From the NCBI RefSeq assembly GCF_054482525.1, contig NZ_CM137006.1: 64,000 nucleotides of DNA, one strand, 5' to 3'. Of this stretch, positions 30,677 to 33,991 are shown in pieces; position 1 is the first letter of the stretch, and each line of letters starts with the position of its first letter. The notes below the pieces were generated by a model. The model saw only the letters and a list, made by a program, of their open reading frames with translations, had not been told where the DNA came from and ran no database searches. Made by a program: the position numbers and the translations under genes.

Positions 30677-30713
30677 CCAGCCCTCCAACATCACAATACC
30701 TGAGACTTTATCA

Positions 30714-30740
30714 CCCTCATATTCCTCCTGAATATGAGGG
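30714..30740. terminator. hairpin between convergent yjiA and pac (bidirectional terminator candidate)
   Basis: CCCTCATATTC-ctcct-GAATATGAGGG. Confidence 0.5.
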
Positions 30741-30753
30741 CTTTCGGGCTTAA

Positions 30754-33294
30754 TTATCTCTGAACGTGCAACACTTCCTGCGACTCCTTATGCGCCTCCA
30801 CATCCTGCTTCGTTAACCAGAGCGACTTACGACCAAAATTTTCGTACATTTTCAGCTGATCTTCATAGTGCTTATCAACTGTTCCATCGGGAGCAATAAA
30901 TCCACTCTGACCGGGTGCGACCACATCCCAGGCAAGCACCGGGCGATCGCTCGTCATTGGTGAGAAGACAATCATATCGTTTTCTGTTCCACGGTTTTGA
31001 TACTCCGCCTGATGACGCGCTTCTTCCGCTGCGGCCTGCGGTACGCCAAAGAAATTATTTGCCCGGAACGTTAAGGCCATTGCAGGTGTTTTCCAGTTAC
31101 TCACATTATTGCCATAGCGTTTGGAAAGAGTCTCCCAGGTATCTTCCAGCGCAGCCAACACAACCTCCTGCTGTGATTTCCCGGCAAACAGATCAACCGC
31201 CTGTGGGATTGGTGATTTGTCTCCCTGCACCGCCTCATACAAAATTTTTGCTCCAACACTTATATTCAGCGAACCAGTTGGACCGTCCTGGGTTGTTTCG
31301 TAGCCACTGGCGCTGTACCACTTATCAAATGGCATAGGTACAACAGCCACTACGGTACGCTTCAACATACTGGTCAGCCAAACGTTTAGGATGGCAGAGC
31401 CTGGCTGTTGCCAGGTTTTACCATCATCATTGAGCAGATTGATGCCATCCCAACGTGTTAATGTTTCTACCAACTGACGACGCGGATCGCTCTGTGTCAA
31501 ACCAGATGTCGCTGCTTGCAGAGTAGGTAAAAAAAGCCTCAGGTTAAGATCCTGACGACTGGTTTGGCGAATAACATCCCATGCCTGATCAGCAGTTAAG
31601 CGTGGCTTTTGCTCAAGCAGTCGGTCGATCTCCGTAACGCGATCTGCACCACCCCACAAAAAGGCAAACAGATCCGAAGCGGGATAATCTTTTTGGGGGG
31701 AATTGTTCCAGTTAGCAATATATCCCGACTGGGGGTTATACACCTTAGGGTTCATTTCAAAAGGCAATAGCCCTTTCCAGTCCCATTTTCCCGTACCAGG
31801 AACGGGTAATCGCGGATCATGGCCTGATTGACGATCTGGATAAGCACCAGTATGAACATAACCAATATTGCCGTTTACATCAGCATAGTACCAGTTGATG
31901 GTCAGTGCTTGTTTCGCTGCCTGCTGTGTCCACTCCTGCCAATTTTTGGCCTTCATCTGATGAGTCCAGGCCAGCAAAGACGCCACCTCTTTACCATCCC
32001 ATGCGCGGGATTTAGCGTAAGCCGTTTGTGTCGTCTGGTCAGTTTGGAGAATGTTGCCATGCACCGTACGCCAGACAGTAAAGGTCTCTGCCTGACCATT
32101 TTTCACCGTAATGGTTTCCTCACGGCTTAACATTTTCACCCACTTACCATTATGCAAGTAGTAGCCTGGTTTCTCTGCCGACAGCTGTTCAGCAAAAATA
32201 TCGACATCATCGCCGAAACCTGCCGTTGATCCCCAGGAAATGACACCATTATGACCAAAAACCAGCCCCGGATAGGCAAATGGTGTATTGCCAGTGACGT
32301 CATAACCAGCACCATGCAGACCAATACCATAAGTATACGCAGGCGCATACCAGCCAAACTGCGGACCATTTACCATGATTGCTTTCGCATCCTGGGCTTT
32401 GCTTTTGCCGATCACCCACATATTGCTGGTCGTTGGATACCCCGCCAGACCATTGGCACCACTCTGTGCAAATTGTGCAGCAATAGTTTCTCGGTTCTTC
32501 CCTGCTGTTAACGCCAGCAGTGCGCCATCCGCCCCTTTTGCTGGTCGGTCAAGCATTGGTGCAGGCAAATCGTAGCGTGGCAACAGAGCTGCTGTTTGCG
32601 AGTTTTGCTGATTAAATTTAAGTGGGTAGCTACTCTCTTGTACGGCAATAGTGGTTGGCGCTGATGGGTTTACCAGCCATTTCAACTGATTAAATACCGC
32701 CATGCCTTGTGATACACCATATTTATCTTTTAAAGCCGTTAGCAGTGCCAGATTATCAATTTCGCTAGTGCTATCAGAGAAGCGGTTTGCCATGGTGCCC
32801 ACAAATATCATCGCGACATCAAACGGTTCCCAGCGCTTAGGAGTAAAGCCAAATGTATTAAACTGTTTTGGTAAGAGCGTCTCTGGATTGGTATTTACCT
32901 TATCAATCCAGGCATTCATTCCATCAGCGTAGCCTTGCAGAATGGACATATCCTCTGGGGAAAGGGCAGCAATTTGTGCCCGGATAGCATCCGGCCAGTA
33001 GTTACGGCGGATATCTTTATCAAATTTCACAAAATCTTTGCCAAGCACTTCCGCGACAGTTCCTTGAGTACTGCGACGTGCCATTTCCATCTGAAAAAGG
33101 CGATCTTGTGCTACTGCATAGCCATAGCCATAAAATAGGTGCCATGTATCATTGGCATAAATATGCGGCATGCCGTATTCATCGCGAACAATCTTTATCT
33201 CACTTGACGACTGCTCAGCCAGTGCAGGCAAGCTCCAACAACACATCAGGTAAGCAGTAACACAGTTCACGATCATACGATTTCTATTTTTCAT
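30754..33294 (-). CDS. pac: penicillin G acylase precursor (Ntn-hydrolase; signal peptide, alpha subunit, spacer, beta subunit)
   Basis: 846 aa; N-terminus [14 protein letters not shown]...[25 protein letters not shown] matches remembered E. coli penicillin amidase. Confidence 0.93.
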
Positions 33295-33650
33295 TGTATC
33301 CTCTGGCAGGTGTATAATTAGCGAATTGATACTAGCAACGAAGCTTCGGTTATCTATTTGCAGAGAATTGTTTCATTATGAACTGTGAGCGCGATAACTA
33401 ATTTTTGATACAAAAATTTCATTAATGTGATCTAAAACGAATCGCTTTATTCACCGCTGATGATTTTGTTCTTTTACTTTTCCATTCTGTGACAGCCCCC
33501 CGGACGCATAGATGATGACCCCCAGTGAGACAGCTCAGGTCACTATCTGTATGTAAATCAGAAAAATATGTTGTAAACGACTTTTATGGTTGGATTTTGT
33601 AGCAATTTTGAATGCAGACAGGCAGCATTTGCCAACACGCCGCCCATAGT

Positions 33651-33815
33651 TCACTCCACATCCTCCCTGCGTAACCCAATATCCCTCAACCGCTCATCAC
33701 TCATCTGCTGTAACACCCGCCGGGCCTGCATTTGCCGCCGCCAACGCCTCACTGCCTGCCAGAGTTGCACAAGTCCAATAAACGGTGCTTTAGCTTTGTT
33801 TTCGTGAAATTCCAT
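33651..33815 (-). CDS. yjiS: DUF1127 small protein (54 aa); below the size cutoff of the ORF track
   Basis: Hand-translated: MEFHENKAKAPFIGLVQLWQAVRRWRRQMQARRVLQQMSDERLRDIGLRREDVE; RBS GAGGAGG 6 bp upstream. Confidence 0.75.
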   Translation of the reverse strand: MEFHENKAKAPFIGLVQLWQAVRRWRRQMQARRVLQQMSDERLRDIGLRREDVE

Positions 33816-33991
33816 CTGCTGCCTCCTCATCTTTCAGAGGCTTCATCATCCGCCTTCTGGCAGTTCACAATACAGATGCAAATATTAGTTTTATTTAACA
33901 TACAGACAGGTTAAAACAGCATCTGCATCCGGTTTTTTAGCCTCATCTGTACCGGTTTTTCTCTCTGTATGGTCCACATAAGGAATACAGC

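Follow-up and report, generated by a model that had tools for sequence, protein, structure and literature searches.

The interval between yjiA and yjiS in the 64-kb stretch of DNA analysed here (the window) is very probably the enterobacterial immigration control region (ICR) in the form of its pac allele, an old and defence-free segment which is not self-mobile and is inherited or exchanged as a cassette by way of its flanks. The ICR may be regarded as a hypervariable slot framed by yjiA-yjiX-btsT on one side and by yjiS-yjiR-yjiP on the other, and the variable segment of the window was found between yjiA(XY) and yjiS(RP). Nothing that was found contradicts the identification of the locus and of its gene pac, encoding a penicillin G acylase (PGA).

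The pac segment, its junctions and its gene

The left framework gene of the ICR, yjiA (29720-30676, plus strand), encodes a CobW-family GTPase of 318 aa (NCBIfam NF008578, 682 bits), and the right one, yjiS (33651-33815, minus strand), a DUF1127 protein of 54 aa. With amino acid identities of 98.4% and 94.4%, respectively, both are orthologues of the K-12 genes, as a sequence-only reading of the same DNA had proposed, with correct coordinates for their ends (30676 and 33651). The next framework gene, yjiR (33992-35404, plus strand), encodes a MocR-like fused HTH/aminotransferase regulator (NCBIfam MocR-like families; 98.9% amino acid identity to K-12). The flank orthologues are 94-99% identical to those of K-12 in amino acid sequence, and the gene order outside the variable segment is that of K-12.

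In the alignment against K-12 MG1655, which that reading had recommended, the BLAST breakpoints fall at 30662/30663 and 33650/33651 and delimit a variable segment, the pac cassette, of 2,988 bp (30663-33650) in place of 16,007 bp in K-12. The earlier bounds, set at the ends of the two flanking genes, are exact on the right, where K-12 homology restarts precisely at the yjiS stop codon, but not on the left, where the junction lies 14 nt inside yjiA, four codons ahead of its stop. The K-12 alignment diverges past 30662, the last 14 nt of yjiA (30663-30676) fall within the variable segment, and the final four codons read ELKK here versus GLRK in K-12. The interval had been described as enclosing only pac and about 360 bp of its upstream region, and it does contain nothing but pac, 356 bp upstream of it, and a 77-bp spacer with a hairpin on the yjiA side. 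The hairpin (30714-30740), located between the convergent yjiA and pac, is a perfect inverted repeat of 11 bp with a 5-nt loop (CCCTCATATTC/GAATATGAGGG, 100% complementary) that probably functions as a bidirectional terminator. The GC content is 0.46-0.50 in pac, 0.40-0.43 in its upstream region and 0.52-0.55 in the flanks, a mild difference that would fit a foreign origin of the segment in the distant past.

The gene pac (30754-33294, minus strand) is an 846-aa ORF for a penicillin G acylase precursor, annotated in RefSeq as 'penicillin G acylase'. Its naming from the letters alone was confirmed by a full-length penicillin amidase domain (Pfam PF01804, residues 33-834, model positions 2-675 of 675, E=6.1e-138) and by the alignment of the crystallised chains PDB 1AI4_A (alpha) to residues 27-235 and 1GK9_B (beta) to residues 290-846. 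The precursor is composed of a signal peptide (residues 1-26, followed by EQSS), an alpha subunit (27-235, 209 aa), a spacer (236-289, 54 aa) and a beta subunit (290-846, 557 aa). Residue 290 is a serine (SNMWVIGK) aligned to residue 1 of both 1GK9_B and 7REO_A, in the position of the N-terminal nucleophile, and the beta chain scores about 1290 bits over 557 aa against the crystallised E. coli PGA. After synthesis of the 846-aa precursor and its export, Pac would cut itself at Ser290 to give the alpha and beta chains, and its near-identity to the crystallised enzyme points to hydrolysis of penicillin G and phenylacetyl amides. PGA is a periplasmic Ntn-hydrolase cleaving phenylacetyl- and hydroxyphenylacetyl-amides and esters.

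The upstream control region of pac (33295-33650, minus strand) shares 98.6% identity with that of E. coli W. A pattern search with CRP and PaaX consensus sequences from the literature marked there putative CRP-like half-sites (33384-33399 and 33426-33441) and a putative PaaX-like box (CGATTC-N27-GTATCA) at 33406-33444. When 30600-34050 was scanned with sigma-70 and terminator consensus patterns, promoter-like sites were fewer than in shuffled sequences, and the pac promoter, which is presumably CRP-dependent, was missed.

Search for defence and mobility genes

The K-12 interval had been said to hold mrr, hsdRMS, symE and mcrBC, and the MG1655 annotation agrees: between yjiS and yjiA there lie yjiT, yjiV, mcrC, mcrB, symE/symR, hsdS, hsdM, hsdR and mrr. 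A tblastn search with all nine proteins of the K-12 island (including HsdR/M/S, McrB/C, Mrr and SymE) gave no match at E<0.1 anywhere in the 64-kb window, so that the claimed absence of Type I restriction-modification, McrBC and Mrr was upheld, and neither restriction-modification nor modification-dependent restriction genes are present in the interval. The PADLOC profiles, whose use had also been advised, recognised no defence system among the 50 proteins of the window and gave no match for Pac or for the small ORFs of the interval; the absence of defence genes is thus stated for the 64-kb window and for the families covered by PADLOC-DB 2.0 and the K-12 island proteins. The weak single-domain matches of about 30 bits or less were rejected in all cases, namely YjiR to SspA/DndA (a housekeeping gene sharing the PLP fold), DnaC to AbiO/Nhi/DrmD (a housekeeping gene sharing the AAA+ domain), BglJ and YjjQ to CARF models (the HTH part only, a generic domain), and LgoD to mad2 (a generic shared domain in a well-known housekeeping gene). 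Judged by its sequence, the pac slot is a defence-free allele of the ICR, and since it carries no restriction or recognised defence genes, the strain would be without ICR-encoded barriers of the EcoKI, McrBC and Mrr types.

The broader statement of the sequence-only reading, that no replacement defence system is present, agrees with the PADLOC result but needs a caveat with respect to a gene located about 1.8 kb past yjiS. This counterpart of yjiP/rpnD (35647-36603, minus strand) is an intact, stop-free gene for a 318-aa protein of the Rpn family (PD-(D/E)XK), which scores 168.9 bits with TIGR01784 (cut-off 52.1) and 377.9 bits with the RpnA model, under the equivalog cut-off of 583; in K-12, rpnD is annotated as a pseudogene. 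Its length differs by 12 nt from that in W and by about 39 nt from that in K-12, in both cases in the C-terminal part, and it has no match in PADLOC-DB 2.0. According to published work, the Rpn family acts against phages as a toxin-antitoxin system, with a separately translated C-terminal antitoxin, RpnS, in other Rpn proteins (PMC10400941), and comprises recombination-promoting nucleases (PMC4498929). The gene is thus a candidate for both a toxin-antitoxin/anti-phage function and a recombination-promoting nuclease, and it may itself be defensive. The published anti-phage activity of the family is therefore the reason for qualifying the phrase 'no defence genes in the window'. As to its place, yjiP/rpnD belongs to the framework of the locus and not to the variable segment.

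The absence of an integrase, IS or direct repeat at the junctions, as noted earlier, was corroborated by the ORFs of the interval, among which there is no integrase, transposase or IS, by the PGAP annotation of the near-identical genome of PCN033, with no integrase or IS in the interval, and by a repeat search of 30300-34300, where no direct or inverted repeats bracket the segment beyond chance 11-13-mers. The nuclease-like gene nearest to the interval is the framework gene rpn at a distance of 2 kb. A similarity of 23 nt at 78% that the 3' end of pac shares with that of yjiS was discarded, as it rests on an exact 11-mer, of which about two are expected by chance per 4 kb. Rfam, searched over the whole window at the gathering threshold, returned three tRNA-Leu genes confined to 924-1243 and nothing in the interval. 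Accordingly, the segment has neither a border integrase, transposase or IS nor flanking direct repeats or a tRNA attachment site. The plasmid search returned three pac matches, all in records of 0.4-4.8 Mb labelled as plasmids; two of these carry a yjiA annotation at the matching position, the third has no annotation there, and all are probably mislabelled chromosomal sequences.

Distribution, age and alternative explanations

Of 5426 complete E. coli genomes, 1074 contain the pac segment, 1067 of them (about 20%) at a coverage of at least 80%, and the same number, 1067, have the complete yjiA-pac-yjiS-yjiR block in one place. In the complete genomes with this allele, among them B1-type STEC, W and strain 042, pac always occupies the yjiA-yjiS site; the arrangement is an ordinary one, belonging to about one fifth of the sequenced E. 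coli. A further 72 of the 5426 genomes have a near-empty slot, with yjiA and yjiS within about 2 kb. Among the matches listed, IS1A is present in 30 of 30 and a truncated DUF262 (GmrSD-type) remnant in 28 of 30, and the near-empty alleles are therefore recent secondary deletions. Thus, three alternative segments occur between the same flanks: the K-12 one of 16 kb, the pac one of 3 kb, and the IS1/DUF262 remnant of 1-1.4 kb.

Relative to K-12, the window also contains an additional cluster between tsr and btsT, 3.8 kb from pac, at which K-12 homology skips positions 15730-27000. According to the PCN033 annotation, this is the hpa cluster for 4-hydroxyphenylacetate catabolism (15787-26913; hpaR, hpaGEDFHI, hpaXA, hpaBC). 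Both hpa and pac were found together in 1071 genomes, and the hpa cluster alone in 2019 of 5426; pac is always accompanied by hpa in E. coli, the two being completely linked. The aromatic acids freed by PGA would enter the paa pathway and that of the neighbouring hpa cluster.

Outside Escherichia, seven Kluyvera genomes as well as Lelliottia, Silvania and Leclercia have pac flanked by yjiA-yjiX-btsT and, on the other side, by yjiS-yjiR or yjiN, and an Enterobacter MAG with pac has the yjiN side alone on its contig. The pairwise identities of PGA and of YjiA plus BtsT across eight taxa are correlated with r=0.93, with one genome taken per species and the pairwise values not being independent of each other. 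Since pac is syntenic in other genera and diverges in step with the flanks, the comparison suggests an old occupant of the site rather than a recent displacer of a defence island.

Such a recent displacement, in which a pac fragment gained horizontally, e.g., from Kluyvera, would have ousted a resident hsd/mcr/mrr island, is very unlikely. It would agree with the somewhat lower GC of pac and its upstream region, with the wording of Archer et al. 2011 (PMC3032704) that the K-12 restriction cluster is 'replaced' by pac in E. coli W, and with the last four codons of yjiA, which differ from those of K-12, Kluyvera and Silvania and mark the cassette boundary as a recombination joint. However, the nearest PGA from outside Escherichia is just 86-87% identical in protein sequence, pac has diverged from that of W as far as the core flanks have (1.5%), the allele is spread over about a fifth of the genomes, from B1-type STEC to W and 042, and neither mobility genes, repeats nor true plasmid copies accompany it.

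It would be most improbable that pac is a conflict gene, for an antibiotic or quorum-signal hydrolase, leaving the slot one of 'biotic defence' in a broad sense. PGA shares the Ntn-hydrolase family with acyl-homoserine-lactone acylases, Pac has a weak NCBIfam match to PvdQ (57.6 bits, far under the 950-bit cut-off), and AHL-acylase activity has been reported for the Kluyvera PGA; however, PGA is distinct from the beta-lactamases and gives no protection against most beta-lactams. The complete linkage of pac and hpa and the putative PaaX-like operator upstream of pac point instead to nutritional scavenging, and Pac is not recognised by PADLOC, although a review (PMC12707154) grants the non-defence genes of the ICR possible 'additional fitness effects'. 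It is also scarcely credible that the segment is the remnant of an ancestor with both pac and defence genes which then lost the latter, for while deletions are known at the slot (the 72 near-empty genomes) and extra genes stand beside pac in Kluyvera and Lelliottia, those genes are metabolic rather than defensive, there is no scar, IS or gene fragment in 30663-33650, the spacing on the yjiA side is tight (77 bp here and 92 bp in Silvania), and the block is compact in 1067 of the 1074 E. coli genomes, pac with a large insert being essentially absent from the species.

The old, defence-free pac allele would accordingly represent one long-lived alternative to the defence-gene cassettes, and it may be exchanged between lineages by recombination in the conserved flanks, as Sibley & Raleigh proposed in 2004 (model summarised in PMC2481252 and PMC4498929). 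The transfer of a cassette between genera through conserved flanks would yield a pattern of identities similar to that of PGA and its neighbours. Tentatively, and with less than even confidence, it may be supposed that the haplotype of pac and hpa is ancestral in the slot across the Enterobacteriaceae and has been repeatedly displaced by restriction cassettes, so that in E. coli a 'metabolic' form (about 20% of genomes) and 'defence' forms would make up a long-lived balanced polymorphism with exchange via the flanks alone, possibly helped by the neighbouring Rpn nuclease.

Comparison with known systems

The presence of pac in place of the K-12 restriction cluster is already known, having been published for W in 2011, and so is the cassette nature of the locus, known since 2004; the latter is treated as a replaceable cassette by Sibley & Raleigh, to the extent summarised in PMC2481252, and in PMC12707154, where the non-defence contents of the ICR include a hydrolytic enzyme ('penicillinase') and an aldehyde dehydrogenase (Fig. 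10 legend). The strains with the pac allele would be without the ICR-encoded Type I and Type IV barriers, which bears on transformability and on phage and plasmid uptake, as noted for W. The population figures provide context on why defence hotspots sometimes hold non-defence cargo and open no new question.

The pac allele shares with the K-12 ICR the slot, the framework genes and the breakpoints at the yjiA 3' end and the yjiS stop, whereas it holds 3.0 kb with a single metabolic gene, as opposed to 16.0 kb of defence genes in K-12. The IS1-deleted near-empty alleles likewise have no functional restriction genes between yjiA and yjiS, but they are rare and without pac. In Kluyvera, Lelliottia and Silvania, pac is convergent with yjiA in the same slot, while PGA is 79-87% identical in protein sequence, the Kluyvera and Lelliottia slots hold extra metabolic genes (aldehyde dehydrogenase, LysE-type exporter, AraC regulator), and the hpa cluster was absent within the flank examined beyond btsT in all three genera. 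The locus of E. coli W (ATCC 9637/11105), the second alignment advised, has the same order btsT-yjiX-yjiA-pac-yjiS-yjiR-rpn-mdtM, the same junctions and a yjiA-pac spacer of the same 77 bp, with identities of 98.5% for pac, 97.4% for yjiA and 98.9% for btsT; over the segment, identity to LY180, a derivative of W, amounts to 98.3%. The differences from W comprise 37 substitutions in pac (about 1.5% nucleotide divergence) and indels of 7 nt upstream of pac, 45 nt in the yjiS-yjiR spacer and 12 nt in the rpn gene. The window is identical or nearly so not to W but to PCN033, SCU-102 and 19KM1776, PCN033 differing from it by about 27 substitutions and a 72-nt change of tandem-repeat length in a pentapeptide-repeat gene.

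Gene content and joints of the yjiA-yjiS interval

The gene order, based on ORF mapping and on RefSeq annotation of the near-identical genome of E. coli PCN033 (100.0% identity over 29400-35600), is hpaBC, btsT (27306-29456), yjiX (29506-29709), yjiA (29720-30676, plus strand), the penicillin G acylase (PGA) gene pac (30754-33294, minus strand), yjiS (33651-33815, minus), yjiR (33992-35404, plus), an Rpn-family gene (35647-36603, minus) and mdtM, in agreement with the coordinates of the sequence-only reading. The flanks are orthologous to those of K-12, as that reading held, since YjiA, YjiS and YjiR share 98.4%, 94.4% and 98.9% identity with their K-12 counterparts. 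The genes yjiA and pac are convergent, their stops being separated by 77 bp that include a perfect 11-bp hairpin (30714-30740), and the interval contains, as had been claimed, pac with its AT-rich upstream DNA (356 bp from the pac start to the yjiS stop, put earlier at about 360 bp). Upstream of btsT, a short element at 27000-27163 matches K-12 at 93%, and for queries spanning it the median number of match sites in a genome is 6-7, which a dispersed REP-like repeat may explain.

The same site, the immigration control region (ICR), holds yjiT, yjiV, mcrC, mcrB, symE/symR, hsdS, hsdM, hsdR and mrr in MG1655. In the BLAST comparison of the window with the K-12 stretch, collinear homology stops at 30662 and restarts at 33651, so that 2,988 bp stand in the place of 16,007 bp between the K-12 breakpoints. 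The alignment of the joints places the right breakpoint exactly at the yjiS stop codon, while the left one lies four codons upstream of the yjiA stop and not at the gene end. These last four codons (30663-30676) read ELKK in the window and in E. coli W, both with the pac allele, and GLRK in K-12, Silvania and Kluyvera; the co-variation of the terminal codons with the cassette suggests a recombination joint inside the yjiA 3' end.

The pac product, of 846 aa, gives a full-length match to Pfam PF01804, and the chains of E. coli penicillin G acylase crystal structures align with residues 27-235 (alpha) and 290-846 (beta), after a signal peptide of 26 residues followed by EQSS, which places Ser290 (SNMW) at the beta N-terminus, the position of the Ntn nucleophile. 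Penicillin G acylase is a periplasmic scavenger of phenylacetylated compounds, and the near-identity to the known enzyme points to the same function here. The pattern search of the upstream region gave two putative CRP-like half-sites and a CGATTC-N27-GTATCA element, a putative PaaX-like operator.

Defence and mobility genes, and the Rpn-family neighbour

No match at E<0.1 was found by tblastn in the 64-kb window for K-12 YjiT, YjiV, McrB, McrC, SymE, HsdS, HsdM, HsdR or Mrr, which confirms the absence of Type I R-M, McrBC and Mrr. The PADLOC-DB profiles were searched against 50 sequences, comprising almost every annotated window protein and two unannotated ORFs within the interval, and gave only weak single-domain matches; DnaC, BglJ, YjjQ, LgoD and YjiR were rejected as defence candidates, their weak matches being attributed to shared generic folds. 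The PGAP annotation of PCN033 contains no restriction, integrase or IS genes over the window span, the repeat search found no repeats bracketing the pac segment, and the Rfam search returned only three tRNA-Leu genes, far from the interval; the junctions are thus free of integrase, IS and direct repeats, as first described.

The further claim, that no replacement defence system is present, is supported by the PADLOC-DB result, but with the caveat of the Rpn-family gene at 35647-36603. This gene is intact, scoring 168.9 bits with TIGR01784 (cut-off 52.1), and corresponds to the K-12 pseudogene rpnD/yjiP. The intact gene has no match among the PADLOC-DB 2.0 profiles. YjiP has been described as an ICR framework gene whose expression causes DNA damage and increased RecA-independent recombination (PMC4498929), Rpn proteins have been reported as phage-protective toxin-antitoxin systems (PMC10400941), and rpn is listed among the ICR toxin-antitoxin systems in a 2025 EcoSal review (PMC12707154). 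In its C-terminal part the gene shows a length difference of 12 nt relative to E. coli W and of about 39 nt relative to K-12, which may reflect variable four-residue repeats, by analogy with those reported for RpnS antitoxins.

Two more genes of the window distinguish it from K-12. A pentapeptide-repeat protein gene (42192-44591, plus strand, 799 aa), with tandem repeats of 9 nt x17 and of 24/72 nt, is 72 nt longer than the PCN033 copy and has no match among the PADLOC profiles; it is absent from K-12, where ytiA, the DUF3343 counterpart, stands alone between yjiK and yjiL. The inverse autotransporter gene iatD (47146-52386, plus strand, 1746 aa) sits between kptA and yjiJ, two genes that are direct neighbours in K-12.

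Frequency and residence of pac

Of 5426 complete E. coli genomes, 1074 contain the 2,988-bp segment (1067 at >=80% coverage), among them W derivatives such as LY180, strain 042 and many STEC of O103/O111/O145, and the entire 6.2-kb yjiA-pac-yjiS-yjiR block occurs in one place in exactly 1067; therefore, pac is essentially always at the yjiA-yjiS site. The three "plasmid" matches in PLSDB, in records of 0.4-4.8 Mb, two of them with yjiA annotated under the match, are probably mislabelled chromosomal sequence. Short slots are rare, yjiA and yjiS lying within about 2 kb in only 72 genomes, and are read as secondary deletions because IS1A is present in all 30 of those listed and a truncated DUF262 gene of GmrSD type in 28 of these; such near-empty ICR alleles apparently arose by IS1-mediated deletion of a defence cassette. 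The locus of E. coli EBJ003 (1700-3102 in its own numbering) is an example of a near-empty allele.

The 11-kb 4-hydroxyphenylacetate (hpa) cluster at 15787-26913, between tsr and btsT, a bare intergenic region in K-12, is present in 2019 of the 5426 genomes. The query from its second half (hpaX-hpaC) through pac, for which >=80% coverage needs both parts, was matched in 1071 genomes; hence, every pac-positive genome is hpa-positive, and about half of the hpa-positive genomes carry pac. This co-occurrence fits physical linkage (3.8 kb) and a common role in aromatic-acid catabolism alike.

Recent acquisition is argued against by the divergence from E. coli W, which for pac (98.5% identity) equals that of its core neighbours (yjiA 97.4%, btsT 98.9%, yjiR 97.0%, yjiS 93.3%, rpn 94.9%). 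The yjiS side (33651-36603) is more diverged from W than the yjiA side (97.4-99.0%), with 87.6% identity in the yjiR-rpn spacer, and the spacer between yjiS and yjiR differs by a 45-nt indel. In the cross-genus scan (one genome per species), PGA relatives were located in this slot in seven Kluyvera genomes (aa identity 85-87%), Lelliottia nimipressuralis (80%), Silvania confinis (79%) and Leclercia adecarboxylata, with pac convergent with yjiA-yjiX-btsT and yjiS-yjiR or yjiN opposite; an Enterobacter MAG has the yjiN side alone on its contig, whereas the Buttiauxella copies (72%) are located away from the slot. The Kluyvera and Lelliottia slots also contain ORFs for an aldehyde dehydrogenase, a LysE-type exporter and an AraC regulator; none of these additional ORFs is a defence gene. 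Pairwise PGA identity follows that of YjiA+BtsT with r=0.93 in eight taxa, the pairs being not independent, and is only suggestive of long residence. The simplest reading of these sequences is that pac is a long-standing resident of the site, on which "replaced", as used in the literature, would denote a difference between strains and not the direction of change. The pac homologues of L. adecarboxylata (10001-12475 in its own locus) and Kluyvera genomosp. 3 (10001-12536) align in out-of-frame pieces, as do btsT in the former and yjiR, yjiA and btsT in the latter, and may be pseudogenes or assembly errors.

Comparison with known ICR alleles

The occurrence of pac at the restriction locus without defence genes is real, was rightly interpreted and is already known, the substitution for the K-12 restriction cluster having been reported for E. 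coli W by Archer et al. (PMC3032704). The population frequencies, exact joints, cross-genus synteny and Rpn caveat are what the present analysis adds. As summarised in PMC2481252, Sibley & Raleigh (2004) showed the ICR to be a replaceable cassette, with yjiS and yjiA as its flanks, in K-12, W, CFT073, O157:H7, K1 and Salmonella, and the 2025 review (PMC12707154) includes hydrolytic enzymes and aldehyde dehydrogenase among the non-defence ICR cargo.
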